Positions 1 through 17,378 of a stretch of DNA of 64,000 nucleotides are shown piece by piece (the first letter of the stretch is position 1; every line of letters begins with the position of its first letter). This DNA is from Myxococcota bacterium (GTDB lineage Bacteria > Myxococcota_A > SURF-8 > G963663525), in NCBI GenBank assembly GCA_963676915.2, contig CAXXVK010000073.1, forward strand, positions 8,560 to 72,559. Reading direction: 5' to 3'. Both the position numbers and the translations under genes were made by a program. The notes under the pieces are model-generated. The model saw nothing but the letters and a program-made list of their open reading frames with translations, did not search any database and was not told where the DNA came from.

Positions 1-1238
1 GATTTCAATACAACGTGAATGTTTTGAAAGATGGGGCGGTCTGCCTGAAACGATAACCACACGTTGCCATTTCGAATTCCCCCGGCGACACTGCAACCCG
101 AAAAATTTTCATCCAAACCTCGAGCCAGCGATGTAACAATGTTTCGATCCGTCCCGAGAGAGGATTCGTGAATATCGTAAAACCCGCTCGGTATCACGAC
201 AGGAATGAAATTGAAATTATACGTTTGCCCACCAAAAGTCTCCGTGGTCAAATTCAGGTAAACTCGATCGTTTGCTTGCCATTCTCCATTCACGAATCGG
301 TTGTCTATCCACACGGCATCTGCAAGCTGCGCCGTTCCACGGTTGCGATTTACAGGCGTATCCAACATGGCCAGCAGCGATTGAGCCTCCAACGCAACGC
401 TTGTCGCACTTTCAGGCTCGACACGCACAAGGACGCCACTCCAAACGATGCTACCCCCTTCCCGGATCTGTATCACACGACCCGCAAGAAACGGATTGCC
501 CGAAAAAACCTTGGTGCTTTCCGTATGATCGTTCGACTTTGTAAAGCACGCTCCTCGCGTACAGGAAGAAAAGACATTCCCCGTTTGATCCCCGAGAACA
601 ACGCATTCACTTCCAAGAAAGATTTTCTGTCCAGTCTCGAATCCGTTGCTGTCGCCCAACTCGATTTCGGTATCTTCCGGCCCGAGCGCCTGAACCAGCA
701 GTGTCGAGGTTCGATCCATGCCATACAAATCGAATTCTTCGGTCCACCGATGGTTCAAATCCACGAGGTACAACGTCATACCGTCGAGATCGGTTTTGCC
801 CTCTTTCAAATTGACCCGTTGTGAAAACGATTCGCTGGACCGTTCGATATCCAGATAACGCGAAGGAATACTTCCCACGCCTTCTACTTCGATTTCGATC
901 TGATGAGGATTCCAGAAACGTCCGACAGACAGGTTGAAATCGGCATCGACAACAGCGGCATCACAAACCAAGCGGTACACACGATCGTGAATCTGGTGTG
1001 AAACCCGCACATCGATGGCTATAATCTCAAGGGGTTTTCCCGGTTTTGTAACGAATGTCACCGAAAGCGGAATTTCATCCTCGCAGGATAGCCATTGGGC
1101 CGAGTCCGAATAGTATTCCAATTGCCAGTGCGACAGATCGGTAAGCGATACGATTTGGTTCCTCGGCACGGATTCGTCGAGTTCGATCCTCCATTTCATG
1201 CCGATGGCAATAGTTCTGGATCTGAATCTACATGTCAT
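1..1238 (-). CDS. Phage-like tail hub/baseplate protein, partial (runs off left edge)
   Basis: Not in the ORF track. Hand translation from ATG 1238 (MTCRFRSRTIAIGMKWRIELD...ECVVLGDQTGNVFSSCTRGACFTKSNDH...) stays open to the window edge. It starts 2 nt after the upstream gene's stop and lies after the tape measure and Dit-like genes. Confidence 0.6.
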   Translation of the reverse strand, partial: MTCRFRSRTIAIGMKWRIELDESVPRNQIVSLTDLSHWQLEYYSDSAQWLSCEDEIPLSVTFVTKPGKPLEIIAIDVRVSHQIHDRVYRLVCDAAVVDADFNLSVGRFWNPHQIEIEVEGVGSIPSRYLDIERSSESFSQRVNLKEGKTDLDGMTLYLVDLNHRWTEEFDLYGMDRTSTLLVQALGPEDTEIELGDSNGFETGQKIFLGSECVVLGDQTGNVFSSCTRGACFTKSNDHTESTKVFSGNPFLAGRVIQIREGGSIVWSGVLVRVEPESATSVALEAQSLLAMLDTPVNRNRGTAQLADAVWIDNRFVNGEWQANDRVYLNLTTETFGGQTYNFNFIPVVIPSGFYDIHESSLGTDRNIVTSLARGLDENFSGCSVAGGIRNGNVWLSFQADRPIFQNIHVVLK

Positions 1239-1239
1239 T

Positions 1240-2022
1240 TCAATCCACCTCCGTGAACGAAAGAGCGACGGTGCCGTAACGAGGCTGTGGAGCCGCCCAT
1301 GTTGCGGAATGCTTCAAATCGAACGTCTCCGGCAACAACCGTATCCATCCGTTCGAACTGCCTGCAACCACATCAGCATCCGATTGCCAGCAAAGGTCCA
1401 GCAACAAAGCCGGAATACCGGGTACCTCAACGTTCGTATTTGCAATCATCGACGAAACCATGCTTACAAGACGGTTCCACTGGGTATCAGAAAGAGCTTC
1501 GAGTGTGAGCCGCCTTGTTTGGGACATTCCGTTCAACGTCGCCTCCACATTGCCGGAGATCGACGTACCGTGACTGACGTTGGGATGTATTTTCCCGTAA
1601 TCGTGAAACGAAACGCCCTCTGAAATCAGCACGTTTTGAGGCGAGTTTTCGGAATTCAATGCATCTACATTCGTAAAGGCATAGCTGTCCGGCGTATCCG
1701 AGGCGGTTTTCGAAAAGCCGCAAAGCATTCCGATGTGACTGGAGTCGGGAAATCGCAGACGACAATCCGCCGCCACTTCACTTTGAAATCCCAGCTTCGT
1801 TCGAACCTCTTCCCCATTCGAAGAACGCACGATAGACCAACGGAACGCAGTATGGACCGTTTCGGACTGTGTTTGCATGGTCGCAAGGAGATCGGCAAAC
1901 GTTGGATACGTTCCAGCATCCACCGATACGTTCTGGTAGTTCGCTCCGCCATTCACGGACAATTCCCAAGCTCCGCAGTCCTCTTCGACCACAACCGGAG
2001 CATACAAAGCGATGAGGTTCAT
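1240..2022 (-). CDS. Distal-tail (Dit)-like protein 2
   Basis: 260-aa intact ORF, ATGA-coupled to the upstream gene and second after the tape measure. Beta-rich, ending YGTVALSFTEVD. Function inferred from position. Confidence 0.5.
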   Translation of the reverse strand: MNLIALYAPVVVEEDCGAWELSVNGGANYQNVSVDAGTYPTFADLLATMQTQSETVHTAFRWSIVRSSNGEEVRTKLGFQSEVAADCRLRFPDSSHIGMLCGFSKTASDTPDSYAFTNVDALNSENSPQNVLISEGVSFHDYGKIHPNVSHGTSISGNVEATLNGMSQTRRLTLEALSDTQWNRLVSMVSSMIANTNVEVPGIPALLLDLCWQSDADVVAGSSNGWIRLLPETFDLKHSATWAAPQPRYGTVALSFTEVD

Positions 2023-2750
2023 GATTTCACCAGCAAATCCAAGCTAAAGGAGAAATAGGTGCCGCTATCGTTCCACGAAACATTCGGAGTGTGTGCCCCG
2101 GAAGAAAGAACGTAGGTTCCGACTTCTTCGAGACCATCGAAAAGTCTAATAGGCATATAGCCTTCCACAGCCCGATCGTTGGAAGACGCCATGGTGTGCC
2201 ATAGTCGAAAGCGTTCGTATTCTTCGGCAGGAACCCAATCCATGCGCATCCGAACGGTTCGCCGAGATCCAAACCCCGCCGCTATTTTTTCACCACTGGC
2301 CGCCAGGGAGGATTCCACGGTGGATTCCAACCCTTCCGGTGCCACATCGCACAATCCATGAGAAAACATCGCCCAGGGCTTATGGGATGCTGTGTGGCTC
2401 GTAGACAACTCGTAGGTTCGTGCGCAACTGAAACCGATCCATTCCCAAAGCATGTTCTGCTGGGATACAAGCAAATCCTGCGCCGCAAACAGCGGTTTCC
2501 ATGCCTCCGGTCCCGTGATCGAAAAATGTCCGCACTCCTCCATCACCCAAGAAAATCCAGGGCTTCCCAAAGAAGCGCTTTCATTCATGCGGCTGCAAAG
2601 GTTATCCAGCAACATGAACAAACTTGTTGGTGTTTGAGACGATACGGAGCAAGAGTACTCGTTTTCCCCCACAGCGAACCGAAGACTTGTTGCGTCGAAA
2701 CCATTCGTCACATGCAACAGGGAATGCAAATGAAGCGATTTCAAGCCCAT
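2019..2750 (-). CDS. Distal-tail (Dit)-like protein 1
   Basis: Start reassigned to ATG 2750 (MGLKSLHL...), immediately after the tape measure stop at 2752. Ends YFSFSLDLLVKS. Function inferred from position. Confidence 0.5.
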   Translation of the reverse strand: MGLKSLHLHSLLHVTNGFDATSLRFAVGENEYSCSVSSQTPTSLFMLLDNLCSRMNESASLGSPGFSWVMEECGHFSITGPEAWKPLFAAQDLLVSQQNMLWEWIGFSCARTYELSTSHTASHKPWAMFSHGLCDVAPEGLESTVESSLAASGEKIAAGFGSRRTVRMRMDWVPAEEYERFRLWHTMASSNDRAVEGYMPIRLFDGLEEVGTYVLSSGAHTPNVSWNDSGTYFSFSLDLLVKS

Positions 2751-2751
2751 A

Positions 2752-3636
2752 TCACACCCCCAACACTTTTGCAGGTGTCGAAGAAGCCGTAGAACCGTAG
2801 CGGTCGAGAGAATCCAAAACGGCACGAGCCAATACCGGACCATCCGAGCGACGCCCGACGGTCGGGGAATAATTCAGCGTCAGGTACACCACGTTCGATT
2901 CACCCTGCCCGGAACTCTGACCCATCAACGAACCGGATGAACTGTACGTATTCACTCCGTAGGAGGGAGCGGTATACACCGGTTGCGAAATGGACGACCC
3001 CGCCGAACCACGCCCCGACCCACTTCGTGCAAGAGCACTGGACAAGGCGATCATCACGCCACCGGCAGCGATCAACGCTACCGAAGCCGCCATCGCGCCA
3101 AACCAGTTTCCACTGAAAAACGAGAGCCAGGCTTTGCTGGCAAACAGCAACGCCGTACCCAGCGCAACCATCGCCGTACCGACGATCTTGAGAAAGTCGG
3201 CCAGAAATTCCTTCATCGTGATCGGTGCGGAAGAAAACAGCGACCCCAAATACTGCATCAGCAAGATGTAGCTTTGCGTCAGGCTCTGAGCCACGGTCGA
3301 TGCGAAGGATCGAGCGATCTTTTCGTTGTAGGAGAGTATGGCCTGCGTCTTCTGGCGCTCCAGCTTATCCTGAGCGATCACCTTTTTACGGGTGATTTCG
3401 ATTTCCTCCTCGGCCAATCTTCGTGCCGAATCCAAACGCTCCTGTTCTCCCGAGGTTTCGTTCTGACCACTTATTTCCGCCGTGGCTCCTCCAAGAACAC
3501 CGGCAGCCTGTTGATAACTGTCCACGATGGACTGCGCGCCCTGAGCCAGTTTCTGCCAAGCCTGCCATAGTTTCTCGTTTCCACTCCCTTCGACCGTAGA
3601 ACCGGAATTACCGGCCGAATTTCGTTGGTACGCCAT
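2752..3636 (-). CDS. Short tape measure protein (~294 aa)
   Basis: ATG 3636 (MAYQRNSAG...). Ala/Gln/Ser-rich helical N-half, then hydrophobic segments (IVGTAMVALGTALLFA; FGAMAASVALIAAGGVMIAL). Directly follows the G/GT chaperone pair. Confidence 0.7.
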   Translation of the reverse strand: MAYQRNSAGNSGSTVEGSGNEKLWQAWQKLAQGAQSIVDSYQQAAGVLGGATAEISGQNETSGEQERLDSARRLAEEEIEITRKKVIAQDKLERQKTQAILSYNEKIARSFASTVAQSLTQSYILLMQYLGSLFSSAPITMKEFLADFLKIVGTAMVALGTALLFASKAWLSFFSGNWFGAMAASVALIAAGGVMIALSSALARSGSGRGSAGSSISQPVYTAPSYGVNTYSSSGSLMGQSSGQGESNVVYLTLNYSPTVGRRSDGPVLARAVLDSLDRYGSTASSTPAKVLGV

Positions 3637-4021
3637 GATTGTTTTCCTTTGCTTTTTCCATTTCCTTGTGCAGCGAAAACCGTTGCCGGGTCTGGGTATC
3701 CGCGACCAGCATGGACAGCAGATCCATGGTTTCCACGTAGACGTTGGGTTGATCGAACCAACCGCCTTGCAGTGGCAACACGCCTTTTTTGTATCGGAAA
3801 TACCAACCGAACGGATCACCCAGCGGCAGCGGATGACGTTGCAGATGTTTTCGAGGGCAACAAGTAGGCTCGATCGGGTTTCGTCCCATCTCTTTGGGCC
3901 ATTGGGCTTTCCAGCCGCTTGTATTCGTTTCGCATCGCCTACCGAACGGACAATTGGAGCAACCGAAAAGAAACTCCGGTTTGTCCACATCATCGAGACG
4001 GTAGGCGATCAGCAGTTTTTT
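3608..4021 (-). CDS. Tail assembly chaperone GT C-terminal extension (-1 frameshift frame)
   Basis: The -1 frame from the slip site reads KKLLIAYRLDDVDKPEFLFGCSNC... and joins ORF 3608..3988 in frame. It contains LPLQGGWFDQP, a motif I recognise from tail-chaperone C-termini. Confidence 0.7.
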   Translation of the reverse strand, partial: KKLLIAYRLDDVDKPEFLFGCSNCPFGRRCETNTSGWKAQWPKEMGRNPIEPTCCPRKHLQRHPLPLGDPFGWYFRYKKGVLPLQGGWFDQPNVYVETMDLLSMLVADTQTRQRFSLHKEMEKAKENNHGVPTKFGR

Positions 4022-4485
4022 GCGTCGCCCTCGCCAAGTCGGGACCGGTTCAAGATTGCAAGCCCGATTTCCTGAACCGTTTCGAAGTGCAGGTTCTCGT
4101 CAATCCAGCGTTCCGAAACCAGCGGCGGATTTCCTTTGACAATGGCTTTATCATTCCATCCATCGAAGTTTTCCATCGCCACTACGCCGTGCCGAAACGC
4201 CAGCCAGACCATCGAGCCGAAACCAATGGCGGTGCCATCCTTGCGCTGAATCGGCGCATCCTGAATACCCCGCATTTCACCCGCCGTAAGACCACGGCAA
4301 ACGAAAAACGTCGGCGACATGCCGGAGTGATACGTCAGATGTTCCGGGTTGTATTCCATATCTTCGGCATAAGCGGCCAGATCGCTGTTTTCCCGATCGA
4401 TCGCATCGTCTCGAATCGAAACCAGGCGGAAATCATCCATCGATCCCGCCTTTTTTTTCAAGGCCATATCCTTCTCCGTCAGCAA
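4009..4485 (-). CDS. Tail assembly chaperone (gpG-like)
   Basis: 158-aa intact ORF ending at the slippery site, located between tail tube and tape measure. Confidence 0.7.
   Translation of the reverse strand: MLTEKDMALKKKAGSMDDFRLVSIRDDAIDRENSDLAAYAEDMEYNPEHLTYHSGMSPTFFVCRGLTAGEMRGIQDAPIQRKDGTAIGFGSMVWLAFRHGVVAMENFDGWNDKAIVKGNPPLVSERWIDENLHFETVQEIGLAILNRSRLGEGDAKNC
4015..4021 (-). other. Programmed -1 ribosomal frameshift slippery heptamer A AAA AAC
   Basis: Minus strand GCA AAA AAC TGC TGA at the end of the chaperone gene: an X XXY YYZ pattern whose -1 frame is open into the next ORF, upstream of the tape measure as in lambda G/GT. Confidence 0.75.
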
Positions 4486-4489
4486 AATT

Positions 4490-5026
4490 TTAGGAAATTT
4501 TTCGAGTGAATACTCGCCCGCCGCAATACGCCGTATGTCGAATGGCCGCTTTTACGGCCCGCTCGACGATGGCTTCCGGCTCGGTTGAACTCTCTGCAAG
4601 CGTGTCCATCACTCCCAACGCGACTTCAGAACCCGAACCTACGGCGTCGTAATTGAAGCGGCTTTTCGTGACGGTAAGATCTCCGTTGCAACGGTAGCAA
4701 TCGCTCGAAGTGACCAATAGAGCCTGAAAATCCAGCCCGTCTCCCGCTTCCACTCCCGCCACAGCTTCCACGCCGTCGGAACAGGCGAATTCCCAGAAAA
4801 ATCGCCTTGCCTCTTTCAACGAGCGAATGCGCCGGATATGTGATACCGAGCGGATGTACTCGTTCATCAAGCCGTAATACAAGGCGTGTCCCACGATCAT
4901 CACCGCACCGAACGGCAACCGCTCCCACTTGGGACCAACCCACAGACGGTCGTTTCCCGCCTCGGCCTGGGCGTCGGAGCCGATCCAGGTTTCGCCGTTT
5001 TTCCGAATCGCGACACATACGCTCAT
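4490..5026 (-). CDS. HslV/proteasome-beta-like Ntn hydrolase
   Basis: ATG 5026, 2 nt after the tail tube stop. MSVCVAIRKNGETWIGSD N-terminal strand, a K in VGPKW, YDAVGSGSEVALGVM (GSG motif) and C-terminal AAIRHTAYCGG match the proteasome-beta/HslV pattern. Residue 1 after Met removal is Ser rather than Thr. Confidence 0.75.
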   Translation of the reverse strand: MSVCVAIRKNGETWIGSDAQAEAGNDRLWVGPKWERLPFGAVMIVGHALYYGLMNEYIRSVSHIRRIRSLKEARRFFWEFACSDGVEAVAGVEAGDGLDFQALLVTSSDCYRCNGDLTVTKSRFNYDAVGSGSEVALGVMDTLAESSTEPEAIVERAVKAAIRHTAYCGGRVFTRKIS

Positions 5027-5027
5027 A

Positions 5028-6296
5028 TCAGACAACCTTTCCGAAAAAGGCCAACGTCCAGTCGGGACAGTTCTCCCCAACATCTGAAGCATCGAAATAT
5101 TCGTTCGGATCGAGCGGCGTCAGTTCGAGCGTCTGTGCGAGGCGACCCTGCACTTCTTCCTCATCGGCCACACGGATTTCGCAGGCCGGAGCGTGAAACG
5201 CGATACCATTGGCCGGATCGCCGACATTCCACAGCACCGAAACAACACTTCCGTTTCGATAAGCACTGTGATGGCTTTCGGCGAAATAAACTCCGAGAGT
5301 GACTTTCGGCGAGTAGCTACGGATATCCCACGGCGCTAAGCCTTGAGAGGCGGACATGTCGTGTTTCTCGGGGTATTCCATACCGGGATCGAAAGCGAAT
5401 TTGTAGTACGGATACGCCACTCCATTGATCTGCAAACCTCCTGAAAGCGCCAGCATATCGGGAGGATACACGGCATACGGTCCACCGCTTGACACCCCTT
5501 TCACAACCGCCGGTACAACGTGCGTTTCCTCTACGAACAACCCGCCGTCCTCCTGAACGGCGTGCGTCAATCCGTGAAGATCGAATTCAATCAGCACCCG
5601 GCTGTTGGCCGAGGTGTCATCGATTTTCGCATTACCAACCAGTCCCGTGAGATAGCGGCTGAAATACTCGCCCCCCATCTCGATAGAACGCTGTTGCAGG
5701 CTCAGTGTATTTGGATTTGAGGGAGAAGGCGTAAACGATACGGCGGCAGACAACGAGCTGCCTTGCGCCGCGTGAGCGATCGAATACCGCCCGTTCCAGT
5801 CCCAATATATTTCGTTCGTATCGGAATCGATGCTGGCGATAGCACATGGCTCATACCTACCGTTCGAATCCGGACCGACCATGATCACGTCGCCAACCGC
5901 AAAATCCTCAGCCGGATCACTTACCAACACACCTTTGGCAGTCGTCGTACCTTCTTGAAGTGTCGCCCCTTTTCCGATGTGACCATCCCCCAACGTCGCC
6001 CGCAGCAAATGACCGAGTTCGTTCGGATATGTAGCATATTGATTCACTGCGGCGCGATCGCCACCCGAACGTGCAGCCAGTTTCAATTTTGCCTGGTTAC
6101 GCAAAGCACCGCGCAACGAACGGGTTTGCGACAGATCGGCGCGCATCGGCGATCGTTCGAGCAAACTTGTTTCGACCTTGATTTCCGCGTCGTCGTCGGG
6201 ACGAATTTCCGTCCAGCCATCGGCTTCGCCGGGTAACGTGTCGAAACTATCTTCCAGGCGACAGATGACTCGATGTCGTTTGTATGGATAACTCAT
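5028..6296 (-). CDS. Major tail tube protein (422 aa, with probable inserted domain)
   Basis: Position between terminator-like and chaperone genes. Tube-like N-terminus (VICRLEDSFDTLPG...LLERSPMRADLSQTRSLRG) and C-terminal beta strands. Confidence 0.6.
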   Translation of the reverse strand: MSYPYKRHRVICRLEDSFDTLPGEADGWTEIRPDDDAEIKVETSLLERSPMRADLSQTRSLRGALRNQAKLKLAARSGGDRAAVNQYATYPNELGHLLRATLGDGHIGKGATLQEGTTTAKGVLVSDPAEDFAVGDVIMVGPDSNGRYEPCAIASIDSDTNEIYWDWNGRYSIAHAAQGSSLSAAVSFTPSPSNPNTLSLQQRSIEMGGEYFSRYLTGLVGNAKIDDTSANSRVLIEFDLHGLTHAVQEDGGLFVEETHVVPAVVKGVSSGGPYAVYPPDMLALSGGLQINGVAYPYYKFAFDPGMEYPEKHDMSASQGLAPWDIRSYSPKVTLGVYFAESHHSAYRNGSVVSVLWNVGDPANGIAFHAPACEIRVADEEEVQGRLAQTLELTPLDPNEYFDASDVGENCPDWTLAFFGKVV

Positions 6297-6322
6297 GGAT
6301 TCTCTTTCTGCGTTTTTTCAGG

Positions 6323-6766
6323 TTATGGCTCGATCCAATCGACCGTAAATCGATGAACGGCCTTTGTTACGTGCCTTTCACGTATCGGCGCGTCGCTGCC
6401 TTGGTAGGAAATCAAACGCACGCCGCCAGGCCATTGATCAGGATCTTCGAACGCCTGACGAATCAGGTCCATGTCCCCTTCTACGAAAGACTCGTCGAAC
6501 GCCCGAGAACGGCTTCTCGGATACAGCACGGTAAGAACGCACGCAGCGCTGTATTCGCGACCCGTGGATACTCTCGACACGGAACGCACCTCACCCGCAT
6601 CGAGCACGAAACGTCGAAACGACTGAGCATTCGAAAGATCTTTCGCATCCAATGGAGCATCCAGCCTGATAAAACCTGCGTCAAAGGGCGCTTCATCACC
6701 CACCGGAAGGCCCGAAAGGCTCTCCAGAACCGTCGCCAGAGACTGCAAAATCGTTGCGTAGCTCAT
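6323..6766 (-). CDS. Putative tail terminator/completion protein
   Basis: 147 aa, ATGA-coupled to the upstream gene and directly before the tail tube. Size and alpha/beta pattern fit; call is positional. Confidence 0.5.
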   Translation of the reverse strand: MSYATILQSLATVLESLSGLPVGDEAPFDAGFIRLDAPLDAKDLSNAQSFRRFVLDAGEVRSVSRVSTGREYSAACVLTVLYPRSRSRAFDESFVEGDMDLIRQAFEDPDQWPGGVRLISYQGSDAPIRERHVTKAVHRFTVDWIEP

Positions 6767-7458
6767 GGTGCCAGCCTCGCCGTGGCCAGAGTTTTTTCGA
6801 CCTCCCCTACCCCACCGCTTTCGGCATCGACACGAACGGAGGACAAGAAACGTTCCAGCTCGTTTTCGTACCGGTCATGTGTGGCTACGAATTTATCCAT
6901 GTAAATGTCGTCGCCATGACTCATCGAGAAATACATCCGAGCCTGCGCAAGACTCAGTAACAGCCGGTCGAGCCACACCTGGTCGTAAACGGTTCCCGGC
7001 CAGATGCCATCCTGTTCGAGCCGTAGCCGCAATTCGATTTCGGAGGTTCCAAGCACTTTTTTCCGCGTCCAGCCATCCGGGTCGTGAGCTTCGAACGACG
7101 GGTCCATGTCGGAAAGATCTTCGCCCGACACGTTGGGTGTCCAGGTTTTTCGACTGACCCGAAATCCCCTTACAACCGTGGGGAGACTGTCGTATTCGAC
7201 CGTTGCACGGTACCCGTCGGAAACGGTCCATGGCTGTGGAGACGATGTATTCAGGCTGCAATAGCAAACGCCATCGTCCCCATTCCACAGCATGGCTTTT
7301 TCTGTAACAAGAGCGTTTCCGTCCGGATCGTTCACCGTCAAAAGGGCTTGCGGGTTTTCTTCCACCTCACCCCACGAATCGGTAGGAACGACCCAAAACG
7401 TCGTGGCTGGCTCATCCGTCGGGATTTCCCGTGGAAAGAGAAGATAACTGTGTGCCAT
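6763..7458 (-). CDS. Putative head-tail adaptor (Ig-like N-terminus, helical C-terminus)
   Basis: 231-aa intact ORF with upstream AAGGGA RBS. Beta-rich first half, helical second half. Call is positional. Confidence 0.45.
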   Translation of the reverse strand: MAHSYLLFPREIPTDEPATTFWVVPTDSWGEVEENPQALLTVNDPDGNALVTEKAMLWNGDDGVCYCSLNTSSPQPWTVSDGYRATVEYDSLPTVVRGFRVSRKTWTPNVSGEDLSDMDPSFEAHDPDGWTRKKVLGTSEIELRLRLEQDGIWPGTVYDQVWLDRLLLSLAQARMYFSMSHGDDIYMDKFVATHDRYENELERFLSSVRVDAESGGVGEVEKTLATARLAP

Positions 7459-7476
7459 GTCGTTTCCCTTTCTTGG

Positions 7477-9796
7477 TTACGCGATCGTTTCCCAGGTTTT
7501 TGAATTGTGGTGGTACTTGAGCGTAACGGCCTCGTTTTGTGAAAAAGCTTTGGTCGCCGAACCGCCGATGGTATCGCTTTCGTGAATTGCGAAACGTCGC
7601 GGCTACATCCGGAGCATGCGTCCATGAGGACGACACCGTGGCTTTCCAATATTCCTTGGTCGTAGCCGAGGTATCGCCGCTAACGTCGGATGCCTCAAGA
7701 CCGGCAGCGGAGATCGTAGCCGTAGAAGGATCGGTATCGTCTGAAAACCCCGTAAGGCTTCCGTCCGCAAAATCGCCATCATCACTCGTCAACGAACTCT
7801 GCGTAAACGTCAACCAGTCTGTACCGACACCGGCAACGACAATACCGGAATGCTGGCGGCGACTCAGAGTCAGCGTGTTGGCACCTTTGGACAACACCGA
7901 CACTTCGAGCGCATCTTCTTCGGAGGCCACACTCGGAAGATACAGTGTAAGGTTGCTCGAAGATGTGTCCACGCGCAGGCATTTTCCTTCGCACTCGCTT
8001 ACGGCCAGCACATCCTGGTCGTTTGCTGCCGTTTTTTCGAGCCATGCGAGCCGCAGGTTCCTTTTTTCGACCAACTCGCCACTGATTTTCTGGGCCGACC
8101 AGAGATCGGTCGTTCCCGAAGCGGCGTCGTCGATTTCCCGGTGAGTATCCGTGCTATCGACATGCGCCCGCAATTCAGAAGCAGAAACTTCGTTGGCACC
8201 GCCCTCGTCGAGCTTCGCATCCGTTCCGCTCGTATGACGTACAGCAGTGTTCGCCGCCACATCGGTATGCGCCGTGATGCTCGCCGTCATATCGGTAACA
8301 TCTGTCGCCGTGTGCGTATGATCCTTATCGGACTTACCGGAAAGACCATGATCCACCACGGCAAAGGGAATTTCATCCGTTCCCAAAGCATAGGCAAAAG
8401 CCGTACCGTCGGCGACATTTGCAAGCAACTGATCCAACGGTCGTTCCACAAATTTCTTGCCCGATAGCGTCGCCGCATTCAGCACGCGTCCGTCAAAGCA
8501 GGAACCGATGTACGCGGACACCTCATAGTTTTCCGCAGGTTCTGGAAATACAGGCGTATTGTCCGTTGTGTGATGAAACGCGATGTCCCAGGTATAATCG
8601 TCCGCTCCCTGGTTCCAACTGTCCCACACGCCCTCGTAAAAGATGTCGTGGTAGGGGTAACCGCTGGCTGTATGCAGGTTGTCCGTGTTCGTATACGAAG
8701 CGCCACGGGTATGAAGCGTTTCCGTTCCTTCCGCTCCATTCCAATACATTTCTATCACGATGAAAAAGTATTCTTCGTTTGCAATACCGCTTACGGATTG
8801 GAACGGAAACTCGGAAACGAAGGAACCACTTGAGTCGATCTGCCCTTCCAACTCCCACGATACCGTGCCGATGGGAGGCGTACAGTTGTACCATTCCGTC
8901 TCGCCACGAACATCCGTCATATTCGGAAGACCGCTGCCATCCACACCCACGACGTAGAATTTGAAATAGAGCGAGCTGGAAATTGCCGCCACAGTTTGGA
9001 GTTGTGCCTCTGAAACGCTTGTCGGATAGATCGTCGCAGCGTCGTACGGTGACGTTCGAACATTGCGCATTTTTCGGCTCGTCTTACGACGTCGGTAGGC
9101 ACTGCTCGGACCGCCATTGTCGATTTTATCGTTTGCCGTAGGGTGGCCGTAAACCTGCTCTACAGTTGTTAATACCGCCATACACCGGTCGAAATACGCC
9201 GGTTTCCTTATGGTGTTCGATAATGGCAAGCCGGTTGATTCCAGAAGCCAGCGGGAAACCGTACCGATCAGGTGCGCTGTCGGCAGCAAGCCACGCATAG
9301 CCTTCAACGTTTCCCAAGGATGCAGGATCATCGCCATCCAATGTACCCGTCGTCAGATCGAGTTCGACCGTTCCCCCGGATTTCAGCCGTGGTACCGTCG
9401 TTTGCGGGTAACGTCGCCCTCCGACCGTCCCGTTTTCAAACACACGCAGGCCGGGAAGAATTCTCAAACGACAATCCGCTTCCGGAGCGTTTTCATACAC
9501 GAGTAGCGAGCCGGGAAGATGATTTTCATGTTCTGCAAAATCCTGACAGAATCGATCTCCACCGATGTCTTCGACGCACTCCAAAACTTTTGTGCATCAC
9601 CCGTTCCAGCGTCGTCATCCAGTGCAAGACCACTGTCGGCCAAATCGCCGCTTTCATCGAAACTCGCAAGGTTGCCGTCCGTAGCCTCATCCACTTTTGC
9701 TGCTTTATCGCTCAGCAAGGAATCGGCCTGTTCTTTCGTATAATAACGATCGTCGTTGGTTTTCGGCGGCACCCAGCGAATGTTGGATGTACCCAT
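7477..9796 (-). CDS. Fibre/decoration-like virion protein (~770 aa), split by frameshifts
   Basis: GGAGG RBS and ATG 9796. Joins ORFs 9464..9796, 9126..9584, 7412..9337 and a final frame ending IGGSATKAFSQNEAVTLKYHHNSKTWETIA-TAA (7477). Fibre-type motifs YYTKEQADSLLSDKA, ATDGNLASFDESGDLADSG, HTHTATDVTD and a repeated DD..GT...WSA.K. Confidence 0.6.
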
Positions 9797-9805
9797 CGTT
9801 ACCTC

Positions 9806-10100
9806 CTAGTTGTTGAACGAAAGCACCATGCGCCACGGTTCCGGTCGTGGCTGTCACGTTTCCACGCACCTCGTACCAACCGAAATCTTCGATGTGGATC
9901 GCCGTGTCGTCCGTCTCGCAGGTTTCGAGCGTCATCCAGTTTTCGTTTTTCTGCCGTGCCTGCAACTCGACCGTCGCCGTATCGGAAATTCCGATCGTCA
10001 CGATGTAACGCCCATGTCTACGGCGATTGAGCTGAAACGCCTCACCGGAACCGGTTGTATCGACGTCGTCAAGCAGGATCACTTTGTGCGAATAGCTCAT
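9806..10100 (-). CDS. Small beta-rich virion protein (spike/decoration base-like), one frameshift
   Basis: MSYSHKVILLDDVDTTGSG...ATVELQAR...WYEVRGNVTATTGTV. Removing one G near 9833 gives RMVLSFNN-TAG, overlapping the next gene's GGAGG. Confidence 0.5.
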
Positions 10101-10226
10101 GAAGTGTCTCCATCATAAAAACGGTCCGTGCGCACCGGGGCCTGATCATTCCGCTGGACGTAAGCGCGGGTGCGCACGAACCGAAATGTTTGCCATTCCT
10201 CTTCACATTTTCCCATTTAGGAGAGA

Positions 10227-10245
10227 GGGGAGGACATACCTCCCC
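10227..10245 (-). terminator. Hairpin downstream of major capsid gene (possible weak terminator)
   Basis: GGGGAGG-N5-CCTCCCC followed by a pyrimidine run on the minus strand; no true U-tract. Confidence 0.35.
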
Positions 10246-10321
10246 CATGAGAAGAGAAACAAGAGAGAAGGAATTCACGAGCTTATTCAACACATGAATT
10301 CCCATGGAAGGTTGAGTCGGA

Positions 10322-11257
10322 TTATCCAACCGCCTTGGTCACGCCTTTCAGACGCGCCGCCGCTTTGGAATGCAGGATGATGATGCTCGCCGCCCATTCG
10401 ATGACGGTGAGGTATTTCATGTCGGACTGCAGGCCCATGTCGATCACGTCCATCATCTTGTTCTGCACGCCACAGAGGTATTCCTCCGCTCCGAAACGCA
10501 CGGCATAGATGGACCGGTGTCTTCGTCTTCTCCCTGCGTTTCGTCGAATCCCAGGATGGTATTGCCTTCGTGGTCTTCTTCGATCACACGGATAGGAACG
10601 CCGCCGTAGTGGCTGCATTCCCGGCCGAAAGCATCGGGACCGTAACAGATGCGGCTGTCGTTGCGCAGCAGTTTCGAAACCTCGCGACGCATGGCCTTGC
10701 TCATCAGCAACATGTCCGGTCCGCCGCTGACGGCATCGCAGAGGTCGTCGAGCATATCGGTGGTCAAGTCGGCGCCATCGGCATCCGACGCACCGCCCGC
10801 GTACAGAAGTTGCGACCCGGTCAGACGAGCATTGAGACCGTCGACTGACGGGAGTCTTCGCCGGAGTTGCCGTCGAAGAACATTTTCGTAAAGAAAAGTG
10901 CCGCCGCTTTGGCTTTGAGACGATCGTGTACAGCTCGGACGGCTCCAATGCCCAGGCCATCGGCACCTTGCCCACGCGATTCGGCCAACACCTTGTCCAC
11001 TTTCGATTTTCCACCGAAAATCTTCGTCGTCTCGACCAACTGTTGGAGCACACCGGTGGATTCGCTGTAATCTTCGTTGATTCCACGAAAAGCGATACCG
11101 GGAAGCGTGTCCTCACGGTTGTAGATGAAACTGCCGCCGGGAACGTCGATGAACGGCAGAGCTTCGAGAATGGAGAGTTGTAAGGGAACGTGACCACCAC
11201 GTTTCGTTTGACATGATCGTCGATCAGTTTCGAGGCTTCCAGTAAAGTCAGTGCCAT
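10322..11257 (-). CDS. Major capsid protein (HK97-fold type), three frameshifts
   Basis: Reconstructed MALTLLEASKL...ILEALPFIDVPGGSFIYNREDTLPGIAFRGINEDYSESTG...FDG...SIYAVRFG...HSKAAARLKGV from ORFs 10322..11257, 10821..11270 and 10453..10767. GGAGG RBS. Confidence 0.85.
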   Translation of the reverse strand: MALTLLEASKLIDDHVKRNVVVTFPYNSPFSKLCRSSTFPAAVSSTTVRTRFPVSLFVESTKITANPPVCSNSWSRRRRFSVENRKWTRCWPNRVGKVPMAWALEPSELYTIVSKPKRRHFSLRKCSSTATPAKTPVSRRSQCSSDRVATSVRGRCVGCRWRRLDHRYARRPLRCRQRRTGHVADEQGHASRGFETAAQRQPHLLRSRCFRPGMQPLRRRSYPCDRRRPRRQYHPGIRRNAGRRRRHRSIYAVRFGAEEYLCGVQNKMMDVIDMGLQSDMKYLTVIEWAASIIILHSKAAARLKGVTKAVG

Positions 11258-11260
11258 TGT

Positions 11261-11722
11261 TTACCTCCATGGCTTCGGGGTTTGATTCGCAGCGTAGGCA
11301 TAGGCCGCACGCCGCTGAATGGTTTGAGGATCGAGCGATAGCGCATCCAAATCCGCCGTGCGCCGCGCTTCCGTAGGAAAACGGGGCGGAGCATTGGGCG
11401 TTTGTCCGCGAAATCGCTTCAAAAGTTTTTTCGAATCTTCGGCGGCTTCGAGATCGTCGAGAAACCGCGCAGGGGTTGATGTATCACCGGGTTCGTTGTT
11501 TTTTCCGATCCAATCTTCGAACCGGCTTTTCAGGGTATCGATAGATATTGGCACGAGGTTTCTTCGCGCCATCGTTTCGAGAACCACACTCCACGACGCT
11601 GCAAAATTATTTTGAGAAGGTTTCCGGCTTGCGGTTTCTTCGTCGGGATTTTCACGAACCGGCGAATCGATCTCTTCCGACTCGGACGAACCGGCCTGTC
11701 CTTCCATAGTCTCCACTTTCAT
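11261..11722 (-). CDS. Putative capsid scaffold protein
   Basis: ~153 aa with an acidic low-complexity N-terminus, directly upstream of the capsid gene. Call is positional. Confidence 0.5.
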   Translation of the reverse strand: MKVETMEGQAGSSESEEIDSPVRENPDEETASRKPSQNNFAASWSVVLETMARRNLVPISIDTLKSRFEDWIGKNNEPGDTSTPARFLDDLEAAEDSKKLLKRFRGQTPNAPPRFPTEARRTADLDALSLDPQTIQRRAAYAYAANQTPKPWR

Positions 11723-11745
11723 AGCCACTCTTGATTTTGGGATTG

Positions 11746-11784
11746 AAAAAAAACGGGGCGACGATGGATATCGCCGCCCCGTTT
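11746..11784 (-). terminator. Intrinsic terminator between portal and scaffold genes
   Basis: Minus strand AAACGGGGCG-GCGATATCCATCGT-CGCCCCGTTT followed by further T's (8 T in total). Confidence 0.65.
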
Positions 11785-11914
11785 CGGGCTTGTTCGCGGT
11801 TTTTTGTTTCGGACGCAAAAGTGCTTGATCGATAGTTCAGCACATAATCACGAATCGTTCAACGCAACGATTCTCAACAATTGCGCCGAAAAGGAACAAG
11901 ACGTTCCGAAACGT

Positions 11915-13348
11915 TCACGATTCGTCCGTTTCGTTCTCGTTTTCCTTTTCCTCCAAGTCCTTGCGCGCCGTTTCCCGGTCCTGGCCATGATCCTCGGCGT
12001 AGAAAATCGTAGCGATCCGCCGTGCCGAGTTCGATTTCGATCCGCCGGTTCTCCAGCACTTCGTGCCGCGAAAGCGGAATTTCCGCCTCGGGAAAAACGG
12101 TTGCGGCTTCGAGATCCTGCAAAGCAACGAAATCCGTCGCAAAGGGATCGAACATTGCCGTAAGTTCGAACAGTCGCCGCACCACCTGCGTATCGGCCCT
12201 TTGCCAGATCGGTATCATATCCTGGCGGTATTCACTTCGCATTGCTTGTCGTGGAACTTCGCCACTCCGATTGTACCCTTGGCTCCAGGCTGAACGTGGA
12301 TGTGGAAAGGCCGTGGTTCTGCGCGAAAATTTTCAGGAAGAACTGCAAGTTCTCGTTGCGCTCACTTTCACGCGTTTGAACGGGAATCGGTTCGAGTCTT
12401 TTATTCTCGTCACCCAGACAGAAAATCGCGCCCGCTCCCCGTCGCCGGGTTGAGCTGCCCCAGTTCGGAGAGCGTCCCGTTGTAAACATACGCCGGAAAA
12501 TCGGCCTGTCGCGTATTGAGTGCCCCCCGCGTCAGTTCGTGATCGACCAGCGTGAAGCATGCAGATATTCGTGCGGAAACCGTCGGGAAACATTTCACTG
12601 CCCGGCAATGCCACTTTGGACACGGCAACAAACGGATACTGTGAAAACTCCGCTTCGTTGTAAGCGCGAATCCAATCCGGCTGATCCCGCATGGGCAGCG
12701 GTTCGAGTTTTCATCGCACAACGTAACCTGCACGACTCTCGCACCCTCCCCCGAAATTTTGTATTTCAGGTGACGCACCGGCGTACTCGCGCCCTGCCCT
12801 ACTCCGTCCGGTGCGCCTCCCAACGGCACGGCGATCCACCGCGCAGCCGCCAGATCCTGCGGGTTGTCCGGGTCCGGTTCGACGAGTAGATCGTGCGCAA
12901 ACACGCAGCGCACCCGCGCCTTTCCAGCAACGGGATCGGCCTGTACCCACAACACGATGCAGTTGAGCAACTCACACCAGCGGTTCGCCCATTTCATCGT
13001 CTCGTTGAGATTGGCCGCAGTAAGGTAACGCTCGACCAACGCCGTATTTCCGAATGACTCGCCGTTCTCGTAAAAGCGCCGCATCGGCTTTTTCTTGTAG
13101 ATCATCGCCTTGGTATCGACGATCCGCTTGACGACGTTGAGGCGTAACAGGTTTTCGCTCATCAAGGCGGCGTTGTTTGGATACAGCGTCTGAAGTCTAC
13201 GGCGCAAATCCAGAATGCTGTTTCCGGTATCCAGATAGCGGTCGATCAACTCCTCGGCAGCCGTCACCCAATCGCGACGTGACGCCCACTTGGTTTCGAT
13301 CAAGGCACGTGGCACGGCCTCGGTCGTGTTTCGGTTCCAGAACATCAA
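11915..13348 (-). CDS. Portal protein (SPP1-like), several frameshifts
   Basis: ATGA overlap with the terL stop. LNVVKRIVDTKAMIYKKKPMR, YPFVAV, FLKIFAQNHGLS...QSG and an acidic C-terminus ENENETDES, assembled from ORFs 12410..13348, 12333..12692, 12232..12489, 11874..12242 and 11915..12142. Confidence 0.75.
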
Positions 13349-14713
13349 AATCCTCCGTGAATGGTTACGGGATGGCGATGGCTTTGGGCCATACTGTCGG
13401 CAATGAAGTAGTCCAGTGCATCTCCGGGGTGATCGATTTCGAAACGTTTGTCCGACGGGTCGGCAATCTTCAACTTTCGCCAGGTTCCAGGATGCCAGCG
13501 CGTCAATTCCAGTGATTTAATCAACGCCTTGCAACGCGGATGCACGCGCAGCTTCGGCGCTCGTCCGATTTCCTGCAACGACAACCTGACGGCGGCGGTA
13601 CGCTCTTTGATCGGCGGGTTGGCGCGACCTCGTACGGGATGAATCGTCAATTGCGATACACCGCCCAGCCATCGACGAATGGTGTCGTAATCGCTTTCTA
13701 GCCCGCGATGACTCCGGCTGTAGCCCGATGCGTCTCCGTGCACCTCCACGGGACCGCTATGGCGAGCCACCGTAGGATTGGCCAGCACGGCACGGCAGAG
13801 GTCGTTGGTATCGCATCCACCGCGCAACACCACCTCATCGATCAGAGCCGTAACGCCTTGCGGCCATTGCTGAACAGCAGACAGAACATGAAATCACGTT
13901 GAAATCGAACGACAGATGCAGCGGTAGATCGTCCCGGTAAGACAGTTCCCGGTCGATGTGTTTTTCCCTGTCGAAACCGGCGTACACCCGTTTTCCCTGC
14001 ATCGAACCGGTTTTGCCTTCGATGTAGACCTCCCGGTTTCCTTCGTCGAGTTGATTTTCCAGCATGTTTACGACTCGGGTTGACGTTCCAGCAGAAACGA
14101 TTTTCCCGCGTGGACGCCTGTATGAAACGAATATTTTCGGGCGCTTCAGGATCTTGGAACACGTCGTACAGCCAACCGGGATCTTCCTCGGGATTGCCGG
14201 TCAAAAACAGCCGGTAGACCGGTTTCGGTTTACCGGAACGTCCCGGAATTTCGTAACGTAAACGGGACAACAGCACCATGAACAGCTTGTGCGAAATCTG
14301 CGACGCTTCCTCGACGTGAATCCAGTTGAATTCGCTCGACAGCAACCGCCCAGGATCGGACAAATGCCGAAAGCGGATCTCGGAACCGTTGGTCAGCCGC
14401 AGGTTGTCAGGATTTTTCGACCAGCTTTCGATCATTCTGCGCGGCGTCAGTTCTTCCCATTTTCCACGCGTCGTGTCGCGCAGCAGCGTGTAATCCCTTG
14501 CCCCAACCAATCCTCGACTGTTTGGAACGTATACGCCAGCATCAGGCCAAGCAATACACCCACCGTGGTCTTTCCCGCGCCGACACCGCCTTGGTAAAAG
14601 CAGATATCCGTGTCAACGTCGTGAGGAATCTCCACGAACTCCACCTGCTTTGGAAGCAGGTCGAACGACCTTTTTCGGATCTGCTCCTCGGATAAGCAGG
14701 CATTCGATTTCAT
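13345..14713 (-). CDS. terL: Terminase large subunit (PBSX-like), several frameshifts
   Basis: LLPKQ Q-motif, Walker A GGVGAGKT, Walker B WIHVEEASQ, motif III LTGNP, nuclease motifs SFDFN, HGDASG and DHPGDALDY, across ORFs 14447..14782, 13842..14510, 13835..14065 and 13345..13833. Confidence 0.9.
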
Positions 14714-15188
14714 CGCCTTTTCCTTGTTGTTTTGTCGAACCGGACGTTTTTGCACAGTGGCGCGACATGGCCGAGTCCGCAATGGCCCAGAGATTTTTCA
14801 GCGTTTTTTCGTCCAGCTTTTTTCTTCGCCGTTGGTGGCGTCTTCTTCCATGCGCCGAAGCAGGCGGTCCACGAGAGCAAGAACCCGATGGGAAAGCTCT
14901 CGCTGCAATGCGGGATCAGCAGGCAGAGAATCATCCGTACCGTCCTCGCCTCGTTGCTCGCAGATTTTTTTGTAAAGCCAGGCTCGTTTTTTCCACTCGA
15001 ATCGAGCGCCGTTTTTCGAAAGAAAAAATGCGAAACGCCCGTGTCTCCCCCGAACGTTCCCATGCCGTAGAAAGTACGAGATCCTGTACGATGATCTTTC
15101 GACGACAACGAAGCAGTCCGGGAGAGAGGTTTTCCTCTCCCGAAGCAAGCGCAAGCGGATGCGTCACCAACGCGAATCGTGGTTGCAT
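14613..15188 (-). CDS. Putative terminase small subunit, frameshifted
   Basis: AAGGA RBS and ATG 15188. Helical fragments WKKRAWLYKK...LSHRVLALVDRLLRRME...LDEKTLKNLWAIADSAM...ECLLIRGADPKKV, directly upstream of and overlapping terL. Boundaries uncertain. Confidence 0.5.
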
Positions 15189-15330
15189 GAAATAGCCATC
15201 CTTTTTGAAATGTATTTTATGCGTCCGACGATGATTTTTTCTTTGTCTGTTTTCGAACGCAATGGTGGATGGGTAAATCCTGCCCCAAAATCACCGTCGC
15301 GCTACAGACAAATACCGAAAGGTCACGTCA

Positions 15331-15370
15331 AGATCCGACGAAATCCGACAAAACGTGCCGAATCATACCG
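15331..15370. promoter_or_regulatory. 10-bp-period direct repeats upstream of the virion cluster
   Basis: agatccgacg / aaatccgaca / aaacgtgccg / aatcataccg; ATCCGAC is repeated exactly at 10-bp spacing. Confidence 0.35.
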
Positions 15371-15440
15371 TTTGTGACGGCATTCTGTTTCATGCCTTAT
15401 AAGGATTGGTTGTAAGTGCTTTTTTATCCGATCAGCAACG

Positions 15441-16631
15441 CTATCCGATGGTTTCGAGGTCGCGCATGGCGACGAGATCGGCGGTCCGCTCCAGTAAAGC
15501 GTCTACATCGTTTTCATCGAGATCGGCACGAAGCGACAACCTCAAGCGACACGATCCCGGCGGCACCGTCGGCGGTCGCAAAGCGCGAACGTAAAACCCC
15601 TCTCGCCGCAACAGGCTTTCCGCCTCCAAAGCTACGCGCTCGCTGCCCATCACGAGCGGAAAAATCTGGTCGCGGCAGGCACCGAGCCACCACCCCTGAT
15701 CCAGTAGCGCTTTCCGTAGTTTCACGTTCAAAGTACTCAGGCGTTCGCGGGCTTGCCGTCCCTCTTTGGTATCAAGCAATTGCAGCGCCGCCAAGCTTGT
15801 TGCCGCCACGGAAGGAGGCAGCGAAGTACTGAATATGAAACTTCGCGCACGATTGCGCAAAACATCGCAGGCCGCACGACTGGTCGCGGCGTACGCCCCG
15901 AAACTTCCAAGGGCTTTCGAAAACGTACCTACCAGCAAATCGATGTTTTCCAGGACGTCGTCCTCTTCGACGGTTCCCAAGCCACTGGCTCCCACGGCTC
16001 CGACACCGTGTGCATCGTCCACGACAACCACGGTATCGAACTGTTTCGCAAGTTCTATCTGCTGCGCCAACGGGGCACGGTCGCCGTCCACACTGAAAAG
16101 TCCGTCCGTGACGAAAAACCGCTGTCCCCGGCACGGCGTTGTGGAAATCCAGTAGAGCAATGCGTCAGGACTGGCATGGGGAACCACCACCTTTTTCGCC
16201 GGTGAAAGGCGACAGCCATCCACAATGCTGGCATGGCAAAAAGCGTCCGAGAAAATCACATCGTCGGCACCCGCCAGTGACGACAGAATACCCACGTTCG
16301 CCTGATAACCCGAGTTGAACAACAAGGCATCCTGCTTACCGAAACGCTGTGCAACTTCTCGTTCCAAAGCACGATGAGGCGGCAAATCCCCCGCGACAAG
16401 CCTAGCCGAACCCGAGCCCGTCCCCCAACGTTCTACGGCATCGTGAGCCGCTTTCTTCAGCGTCTCATGAGAAGAAAAGCCCAAGTAATCATTGCTGGAA
16501 AAATTGACGAGTATCCCTTCCGGCGTCTCGATCCGCGCCCCCTGGCCTGAGTCCAACGGAAACGTTTTACGCAGCAAGTGCTTTCGTTCGAGATCCTCAA
16601 GTCGTTGTTTCAATTGCCGATCGAAGGTCAT
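15441..16631 (-). CDS. bioF: 8-amino-7-oxononanoate synthase
   Basis: NFSSNDYLG, GTGSGSARLVAG, SGYQAN, HASIVDG, DDAHGVG, GTFSKALG (PLP Lys) and RPPTVP. Start reassigned to MTFDRQ. Confidence 0.92.
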   Translation of the reverse strand: MTFDRQLKQRLEDLERKHLLRKTFPLDSGQGARIETPEGILVNFSSNDYLGFSSHETLKKAAHDAVERWGTGSGSARLVAGDLPPHRALEREVAQRFGKQDALLFNSGYQANVGILSSLAGADDVIFSDAFCHASIVDGCRLSPAKKVVVPHASPDALLYWISTTPCRGQRFFVTDGLFSVDGDRAPLAQQIELAKQFDTVVVVDDAHGVGAVGASGLGTVEEDDVLENIDLLVGTFSKALGSFGAYAATSRAACDVLRNRARSFIFSTSLPPSVAATSLAALQLLDTKEGRQARERLSTLNVKLRKALLDQGWWLGACRDQIFPLVMGSERVALEAESLLRREGFYVRALRPPTVPPGSCRLRLSLRADLDENDVDALLERTADLVAMRDLETIG

Positions 16632-16635
16632 TGCG

Positions 16636-17353: not shown

Positions 17354-17378
17354 GGTTCGATTTCTTTCATCGCCCCGA

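Follow-up and report, generated by a model that had tools for sequence, protein, structure and literature searches.

A candidate domesticated phage particle cluster, similar to gene transfer agents, in one order of Myxococcota

The stretch of DNA analysed here (the window, 64,000 nucleotides (nt) in length) comprises positions 8560 to 72559 of contig C73 in the Myxococcota genome G000; the contig begins 8559 nt to the left of it. At the left end of the window lies a cluster of co-oriented, tightly packed virion genes, about 22 genes over some 20 kb of the minus strand, flanked by bioF on one side and by a pair of genes for a cyclic nucleotide (cNMP)-binding protein and a major facilitator superfamily (MFS) protein on the other. 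On balance, and with some reserve, we favour the view that a phage particle cluster (a 'viriform') has here been domesticated and fixed in the chromosomes of one Myxococcota order, and that it resembles the gene transfer agents (GTAs).

Genes of the cluster and its surroundings

A first-pass annotation, made from the letters of the window, had described a co-oriented, tightly coupled virion run that starts about 250 bp after bioF and lies within positions 1 to 15440. Orientation, coupling and starting point are borne out: bioF (15441-16604, Aminotran_1_2, 7e-49) is followed by a 252-nt spacer and then, at 15188, by the start of the gene in the terS position. As a run of open genes within that interval, the description does not stand: six head and packaging genes are frameshifted in the window as given, and the cluster reaches 4.9 kb beyond the left window end, g18 crossing the edge and g19 to g22 lying in the contig sequence to the left (Table 1).

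Because the head genes are frameshifted, the open reading frames (ORFs) of the window itself are nearly blank in Pfam and PHROGs: among 20 of them, a Terminase_3 fragment and bioF are all that score above the Pfam cut-offs. Genes were therefore assigned on the intact copy of the cluster in a congeneric genome (G001, of family f1 like G000), whose cluster DNA is 69-75% identical to the window and in which the large terminase (TerL), the portal and the major capsid protein (MCP) are ORFs of 456, 526 and 312 amino acids (aa). Four genomes of another family of the same order (f4: G004, G005, G006 and G007) served for wider comparison. The Myxococcota-like host proposed at first is supported by record L018, entitled 'MAG: Myxococcota bacterium', which carries the same cluster.

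TerL and the epsilon15-type MCP are verified by family matches and the tail tube by a fold match; for the portal, the scaffold, the short tape measure and the baseplate the evidence is weaker. TerL matches PF04466 at 1.7e-12 and 47.7 bits as the window fragment, and at 2.4e-13 and 50.5 bits as the intact G001 protein (gathering cut-off 23.2), which also matches phrog_2 at 1.4e-34. Of the suggested pairing of an SPP1-like portal with a PBSX-like TerL, the Terminase_3 membership stands, together with an ESM Atlas lead for the portal (SPP1_portal clusters, score 0.97, a lead only); TerL scores 40.9 with TIGR01547, the PBSX equivalog, below its cut-off of 105, and the portal has no match in Pfam, PHROG or PDB profile searches. 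Eleven relatives of TerL at 45-51% identity were found among 5.8 billion clusters, and the likeness to Melainabacteria terminases that had been suggested for it shrinks to one 36%-identical TerL of 'Cyanobacteria bacterium RUI128', placed by NCBI among the unclassified Cyanobacteriota.

The MCP matches phrog_212 at 1.9e-66 and NF045672 ('MCP_gp7_epsi_15') at 7.4e-66, with 222.7 bits against a cut-off of 75. It belongs with the capsid proteins of the epsilon15, BPP-1 and phiCbK type, and is 39-46% identical to the MCPs of Paenibacillus, Caulobacter and Brevundimonas phages (229 phage records in the family, best identity 46%). In those phages, however, the MCP belongs to complete 50-350 kb genomes with lysogeny, replication and lysis modules, for example that of Paenibacillus phage Tripp. 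Next to the MCP no prohead protease was recognised by family match in PHROGs, Pfam or NCBIfam. Pfam, PHROG and NCBIfam gave no match for the terS-position protein, whose alignment with the f4 counterparts is poor; the scaffold-position protein, g09 and g10 are likewise without family match. The small g07 is conserved in G007 and in metagenome loci.

For the tail tube g11 (422 aa), an AlphaFold2 (AF2) model built from a 64-row alignment reached a pLDDT of 90 and a pTM of 0.89. Its top Foldseek matches in the PDB are the tubes of T5 (pb6), DT57C and P74-26 (E 4e-13 to 2e-10, TM 0.52-0.57), that to 7qg9_A having an E-value of 4.4e-13, a probability of 1.00 and a TM of 0.57/0.52. The model superposes on the fused double-domain tubes of T5 (7qg9, 5ngj) and P74-26 (8ed0), although g11 is only 8-11% identical in sequence, the tape measure here is far shorter than in T5, and the rest of the T5 tail tip goes unrecognised. 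Since the fold matches these tubes, the tail is probably non-contractile. At the sequence level, g11 had no Pfam match at E<=0.01, a word-based homologue search returned only the query and its G001 counterpart, and the Atlas lead was Phage_tube_2; a profile search of 1.84 billion representatives brought 159 relatives at E<=1e-3, eight of them at E<=1e-30.

In the putative tape measure g15 (242-297 aa), a coiled-coil-like region at the N-terminus is accompanied by a Ser/Gly-rich linker and by a conserved hydrophobic segment rich in Gly and Ala, and a tape measure as short as this (about 240-300 aa) points to a short tail. The tip protein g18 is 64% identical to its G001 counterpart and 23-26% to those of f4; a word-based search gave three close and three marginal proteins, a PDB profile search was negative, and its AF2 model, from a seven-sequence alignment, was poor (pLDDT 52.8, pTM 0.28). 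An N-terminal His-rich motif of the GHDHG type is common to g19 and g20. The last gene, g22, encodes a coiled coil together with one transmembrane helix, and has been conserved throughout G000, G001, G004, G005 and G007; that it is holin-like is a guess.

Among the labels given at first, then, TerL, MCP and tube are backed by family or fold, and the short tape measure by its features; terS, scaffold, adaptor, terminator, G/GT, Dit and hub are names by position, for which Pfam, PHROGs, NCBIfam and PDB sequence searches were blank. PDB sequence and profile searches with the tube, g18, the portal and g12 gave nothing significant, and in none of the cluster proteins did PHROGs, Pfam or NCBIfam show a toxin or lysin domain.

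The peptidase-like g12, whose NCBIfam and PDB matches are weak, is present in family f1 only; G004, G005 and G007 have no counterpart between the tube and g13. One gene past bioF lies a ClpX paralogue of 352 aa (17382-18438, minus strand) without the N-terminal zinc-finger region, which aligns to ClpX residues 57-407 at 9e-83. Both the paralogue and the g12 peptidase are conserved in G001.

The fibre-like g08 gave weak 'phage tail repeat' matches below cut-off, and is absent from the metagenome loci L059 and L061. A separate, contractile-tail element lies on contig C29 of the same genome, at about 36000-59000, with a sheath (phrog_279, 3e-35), a tape measure (phrog_991, 3e-63) and baseplate proteins. 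Residues 29-478 of g08 have a 47%-identical counterpart in the 575-aa fibre of this element (41366-43093, minus strand), and the two phage-derived machines of this genome share what is predicted to be a recognition module.

Table 1. Features of the cluster, in window positions unless stated otherwise
Feature	Position	Strand	Basis and remarks
Conserved non-coding block, possible promoter/operator	15266..15364	-	Inside the 252-nt bioF-terS spacer; role inferred only
terS-position gene	14616..15188	-	By position upstream of TerL; 3 frameshifts in window
TerL, Terminase_3/PBSX-type	13345..14713	-	PF04466; 5 frameshifts in window
Portal-position gene	11915..13498	-	Position, size, SPP1_portal lead; 7 frameshifts in window
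Scaffold-position gene	11261..11818	-	Between portal and MCP
MCP, epsilon15 gp7 type	10322..11257	-	phrog_212, NF045672; three 1-nt deletions in window
g07, small protein after MCP, decoration/head completion?	9810..10100	-	ORF 9705-10100; one apparent frameshift
g08, fibre-like, accessory	7477..9796	-	769 aa in G001; 3 frameshifts in window
g09, head-tail joining position	6763..7458	-	Intact
g10, head-tail joining position	6323..6766	-	Intact
g11, major tail tube, T5 pb6-like double-domain fold	5028..6296	-	AF2 model and Foldseek
g12, HslV/proteasome-beta-like peptidase, 178 aa	4490..5026	-	phrog_1040 at 6.1e-12; follows tube
g13, tail assembly chaperone position	4009..4515	-	74% identical to G001, 38-44% to f4; no family match
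g14, tail assembly chaperone position	3608..3988	-	72% identical to G001, 39-41% to f4; no family match
g15, short tape-measure-like	2752..3636	-	294 aa here, 242 aa in f4; features and position
g16, distal-tail position	2019..2750	-	64% identical to G001, 17-20% to f4; no family match
g17, distal-tail/hub position	1240..2022	-	54% identical to G001; no family match
g18, tail-tip protein	1..1238	-	N-terminal 412 of 1017 aa in window; full length L001:6744-9797
g19, g20, g21, g22	Contig C73 ~3626-6732	-	3' of g18; g22 is a small membrane protein

In the bioF-terS spacer, about 77 of 100 columns of the block at 15266-15364 are identical between G000 and G001, though neighbouring synonymous sites are saturated, and a regulatory role may be supposed for it. 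A promoter scan of the spacer gave no promoter site and no sigma-70 consensus match, and its one terminator-like site equals chance expectation. Rfam, run on positions 1-17000, returned just CsrC, at 22 bits where the gathering score is 61, which we take as chance. In G004, a direct duplication of about 110 nt (L016, ~10420-10733) lies upstream of terS and includes the first codons of the terS-position gene.

The surroundings are cellular. On the right, bioF is followed by genes for a ClpX-like ATPase, a subtilase, a hydrolase, KdtA, LpxK, VanW, PmbA and TldD; on the left, beyond g22, the cNMP-binding gene and the MFS/spermine-synthase gene lie on the opposite strand. The contig sequence left of the window holds the remaining tail genes and then this pair, and no integrase, replication or repressor module, as the first-pass annotation had anticipated. 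It had also seen no tRNA, no att repeat and a host-like base composition. No tRNA was found near the cluster, the longest word shared by its boundaries is 10 nt (mean of 9.2 in shuffles, hence not above chance), and its composition is like that of the host, the tetranucleotide distance lying at the 77th percentile among 222 windows.

Among the matches listed, which are all but eight of those to PF00589, no PF00589 or PF07508 recombinase lies within 20 kb of the cluster in any of five genomes (G000, G001, G004, G005 and G007); the nearest listed tyrosine recombinase, in G007, is some 25 kb away from the cluster and has a score like those of XerC/D. The contiguous integrase, att sites, lysogeny and replication modules of an integrated temperate prophage were thus not found at the locus: the particle genes are chromosomal and without such modules, many cluster proteins being without a recognised family. 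Elsewhere in G001 there are at least 100 PF00589 matches, many with identical scores (for example 2.4e-44 and 2.0e-43) and paired with a weaker match some 400-900 nt away. They suggest an element with a pair of recombinase genes that has expanded massively, which may be the cause of the poor long-range synteny between G001 and G000 (LpxK, KdtA and TldD are on other contigs in G001).

The broken reading frames of the window copy

When the intact G001 proteins were aligned to the window DNA by frameshift-aware dynamic programming, 22 shifts of 1-2 nt were needed, all within terS, TerL, the portal, the MCP, g07 and the fibre (Table 1), and none in 13 tail genes. Read from stop to stop, TerL, portal and MCP are spread across several frames. 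After frame correction, five of the six broken genes (terS, TerL, portal, MCP and fibre) contain no in-frame stop, and the three stops reported in g07 fall where the G001 ORF is over-extended at its N-terminus. The same holds for the apparent shifts and stops at the start of g20, g21 and bioF, which were not counted. In the DNA alignment of the MCP gene, the lesions are three clean 1-nt gaps.

The shifts are not confined to phage genes. Two flanking housekeeping genes have one shift each, the ClpX-like ATPase at ~18009 and the subtilase at ~19608, the latter gene (subtilase/MopE) appearing as two overlapping ORFs (19478-21583 and 18531-19718). Altogether, some 24 shifts of 1-2 nt form a single indel-rich patch of about 12 kb (window ~7594-19608), both sides of which are clean, KdtA, LpxK and TldD among them as single pieces. 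As the indels also strike housekeeping genes and lie in one patch, they are not a phage-specific lesion, and the patch looks like a locally unpolished assembly stretch.

Contigs of other sequencing runs agree with this. Over 7400-15300, Logan contigs from four public runs of two studies are, in pieces, 99-100% identical to the window, with compensating indels. Among the 12 of 25 indel rows listed, nine coincide (within 4 nt) with nine of the 22 sites: 7592, 9169, 11171, 12003, 12437, 12546, 12579, 12706 and 14525; the row at 9313 differs between runs. An independent contig of 94.5% identity has 201 differences over 11616-15296, with 19 gaps where 15 shifts had been inferred. The sequence contexts of the indels are not homopolymers. 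As near-identical contigs of other runs are free of them, the indels are very probably assembly errors, not decay. Programmed frameshifting or an alternative genetic code was rejected, the shifts being numerous, in both directions, without a common context and absent from other samples. There is a general lesson here: an indel-rich assembly patch of about 12 kb can make intact genes resemble pseudogenes.

Selection, descent and distribution

In G001 the cluster is intact and occupies the same locus as in G000, with the same genes on both flanks. Non-synonymous and synonymous divergence (dN and dS) were estimated by NG86 between these two genomes: dS is 0.8-3.8 in cluster genes against 1.14 and 1.42 in flanking genes, values above 1 being saturated and only rough. 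The selection check that had been proposed came out as expected for constrained genes, dN/dS being at most 0.18 in 17 of 20 cluster genes. Among the head and packaging genes are the most conserved ones. After correction of the frames, TerL is 86.7% identical to its G001 counterpart (dN/dS 0.064) and the portal 75.8% identical to the 526-aa ORF (0.17), while the MCP keeps 95.1% aa identity at 84% DNA identity (0.034). Among the smaller genes, g09 (76.6% identity, dN/dS 0.12, also conserved in f4) and g10 (52%, 0.11) need no frame correction, and g12 has a dN/dS of 0.086. Higher ratios were found for the terS-position gene (63% identical to a 192-aa ORF after three frame corrections; 0.36) and the scaffold-position gene (54%; 0.42); that of g07 (1.65) is unreliable on account of an over-extended G001 start.

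In family f4, the module from TerL to g21 is syntenic in G004, G005 and G007, and G006, too, carries the syntenic cluster, on a 20-kb contig. The neighbours there are different ones, cellular in all three annotated genomes (G004, G005 and G007): adenosine deaminase and an acyltransferase; Rpe; and, in G007, ProC and an insertion sequence (IS) transposase. Of the related genomes in which the cluster was to be sought at bioF, the congener has it there, with the same flanks, and the three annotated f4 genomes have it elsewhere.

LpxK and KdtA served as host markers; bioF was dropped, its f4 matches at 33-35% looking paralogous, as was TldD, which had no f4 match at E<=1e-30. Pairwise identities of the cluster track those of LpxK and KdtA, with G004, G005 and G007 mutually closest and G006 and f1 distant. 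In maximum-likelihood trees, LpxK plus KdtA and eight cluster proteins give the same sole supported split, {G004,G005,G007}/{G001,G006}, with similar branch lengths, so that the comparison of cluster and host trees called for at the outset shows congruence, in one split of five taxa.

A close MCP occurs in one copy per genome in six of the ten genomes of the order. A portal profile matched in seven of 401 Myxococcota genomes, all seven within the order and none among the 391 outside it; outside the order the MCP family alone recurs. The seventh match, in G003, belongs to a different element (L063/L064, G003:C1 ~3329500-3332700), in which portal then TerL stand in reversed order at 29-37% identity and no other cluster protein is present. 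In G002 (L056, G002:C2) there are only distant MCP, TerL and g14 relatives at 26-32% identity; G003 and G002 belong to further families of the order. The cluster also occurs on four metagenome contigs, one of which has suffered an internal deletion. Scans of IMG/VR with portal and tube profiles, pattern-based and of limited sensitivity, confirmed no relative. Altogether, the pattern is one of vertical inheritance and purifying selection, seen with the limited power of six carriers.

What the particle may be for

The question arises as to why such a cluster has been kept. With no integration, replication or lysogeny-control genes, it would spread by host cell division alone. Being intact and constrained across saturated synonymous divergence, it does not look like a dead remnant, and its presence at the same spot in two species without lysogeny or replication genes argues against a live temperate phage. 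Since a complete headful-type packaging machine is under the strongest constraint, the cluster most probably serves to package DNA in the manner of a GTA, with killing in the manner of PBSX as the main alternative. The parts that it would encode are a headful motor (terS-position gene and TerL), portal, scaffold, epsilon15-type capsid, non-contractile tail, proteins of the tip and the fibre, and a small membrane protein. In the scheme we envisage, a host signal would cause the operon to be transcribed from the conserved region upstream of terS; procapsids would assemble and be filled with host DNA, by headful, by the PBSX-type terminase; and short-tailed particles would be released and would deliver this DNA to related cells.

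The nearest model is RcGTA of Rhodobacter capsulatus, with the other type I GTAs of the Alphaproteobacteria. As described in PMC11841831 and PMC5721377, RcGTA is, like the present locus, a head-and-tail cluster of about 15-20 kb with structural genes only, in the order packaging, head, connector, tube, chaperones, short tape measure, distal tail and large tip protein; it too lies at a fixed chromosomal locus, diverges with its host and is under purifying selection. The parts are different ones, as the first-pass annotation had supposed when it called the gene set unlike RcGTA and noted the missing HK97 prohead protease: RcGTA has an HK97-type MCP and a prohead protease, whereas here we find an epsilon15-gp7-type MCP with a gene in the scaffold position, a Terminase_3 TerL, a T5-pb6-like tube and no protease match. 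No homology to RcGTA g2-g15 was found, no cluster protein matched a PDB chain by sequence, RcGTA chains included, and profiles of the tube, g18 and the portal gave the same result. The host phylum also differs, and the candidate is known here from its genes alone. According to PMC11841831, known GTAs package 4-14 kb of DNA, too little for the genes that encode them, and the GTA small terminase lacks a recognisable DNA-binding domain.

The cluster is thus a credible, if unproven, GTA candidate whose origin would be independent from that of RcGTA. A bolder form of this proposal, which we put forward tentatively, is that of an independently domesticated GTA family native to one Myxococcota order, put together from a capsid of the epsilon15 type, a headful terminase of the PBSX type and a short, T5-like, non-contractile tail. 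This family would have diverged along with its hosts over distances at the level of families (35-59% identity in housekeeping proteins), would be convergent on the RcGTA layout and would be the first sequence-defined GTA of the phylum. In titles and abstracts of the literature, no report of such an element in Myxococcota was found.

The alternative that fares best, though we regard it as unlikely, is a domesticated killer particle, a PBSX-like 'phibacin' used for antagonism or kin discrimination, the DNA in its head being incidental. PBSX of Bacillus subtilis is a defective prophage, or phibacin, that packages random 13-kb pieces of host DNA; it has a contractile tail, and its own repressor (xre) and lysis genes lie in the cluster. 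The present locus shares with it a TerL of the PBSX family (Terminase_3) and the state of a chromosomally fixed particle cluster unable to propagate itself, but its tail is predicted to be non-contractile, and neither a regulator nor a lysin is recognised, only the small membrane protein at the 3' end. A killer would leave the same comparative signature as a GTA (structural genes only, conserved locus, low dN/dS), and the resemblance of the g08 fibre to that of the contractile-tail element suggests selection on target recognition. A pure killing device, however, needs no terminase, portal and capsid kept at a dN/dS of 0.03-0.17, nor does any cluster protein have a toxin or lysin domain. Known tailocins have lost terminase, portal and capsid; the present cluster retains TerL, the portal-position gene and the MCP, which are better conserved than its other genes.

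Less probable still is a decaying, functionless prophage remnant whose frameshifts in the window are real. The 22 shifts in six head and packaging genes, the deletion in L061 and the four of ten order members in which the cluster was not found would fit it, but the near-identical contigs without indels, the two housekeeping genes hit within one patch, the lack of nonsense codons in the five well-aligned broken genes, the protein-level conservation of the MCP, the low dN/dS of 17 genes over a dS of about 1 or more and the intact clusters of G001, G004, G005, G006 and G007 speak against it. We give as little credence to a part of an active or helper-dependent mobile element, with lysogeny and replication genes elsewhere or unrecognisable, or with the module being moved by a different element: for most proteins no family is recognised, so that unrecognised functions could hide in g07-g10, g13-g14 and g16-g22, the position varies by family, an IS transposase abuts the G007 cluster and the MCP family is widespread in true phages, yet two species that have diverged to saturated dS have the same flanks on both sides, the cluster is single-copy, it was found neither in the 391 genomes outside the order nor in the IMG/VR scans, and there is no nearby recombinase among the matches listed and no terminal repeat.

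Several observations weigh against a domesticated, GTA-like cluster. Losses must be assumed, since the cluster was not found in G002, G003, G008 (79% complete) and G009. Its chromosomal position differs by family (bioF in f1, other neighbours in f4), and the downstream flank is common to G004 and G005 only. The G006 TerL diverges further (32-38%) than would be expected from the pattern elsewhere, and g08 and g12 are present in some copies and absent from others, which is a phage-like mosaicism. Decay does occur: the metagenome copy L061 (10246-11440) jumps from a truncated g15 to the end of g20 and g21, g16-g19 being deleted. The epsilon15-type capsids of real phages hold about 40 kb, compared with a cluster of about 20 kb here, so that a cargo smaller than the cluster can only be supposed. 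The tree test, with its five taxa and one informative split, would agree by chance about once in ten, and dS values above 1 are saturated and rough. Finally, with regard to the indels, the Logan depths are mostly 2-12x, 12 of 25 indel rows are those listed, and one run may be the source sample of the window.

Few GTA lineages have been defined genetically, and distinguishing them from dead prophages is difficult. The locus described here has the comparative signature of RcGTA (structural genes only, a fixed locus, host-like divergence and strong purifying selection) in a different phylum and with unrelated parts. If it is true that its particles carry host DNA, it would add an independent origin of GTAs and provide a sequence handle for Myxococcota metagenomes, as well as a means of studying what leads social, predatory bacteria to retain particles of this kind.

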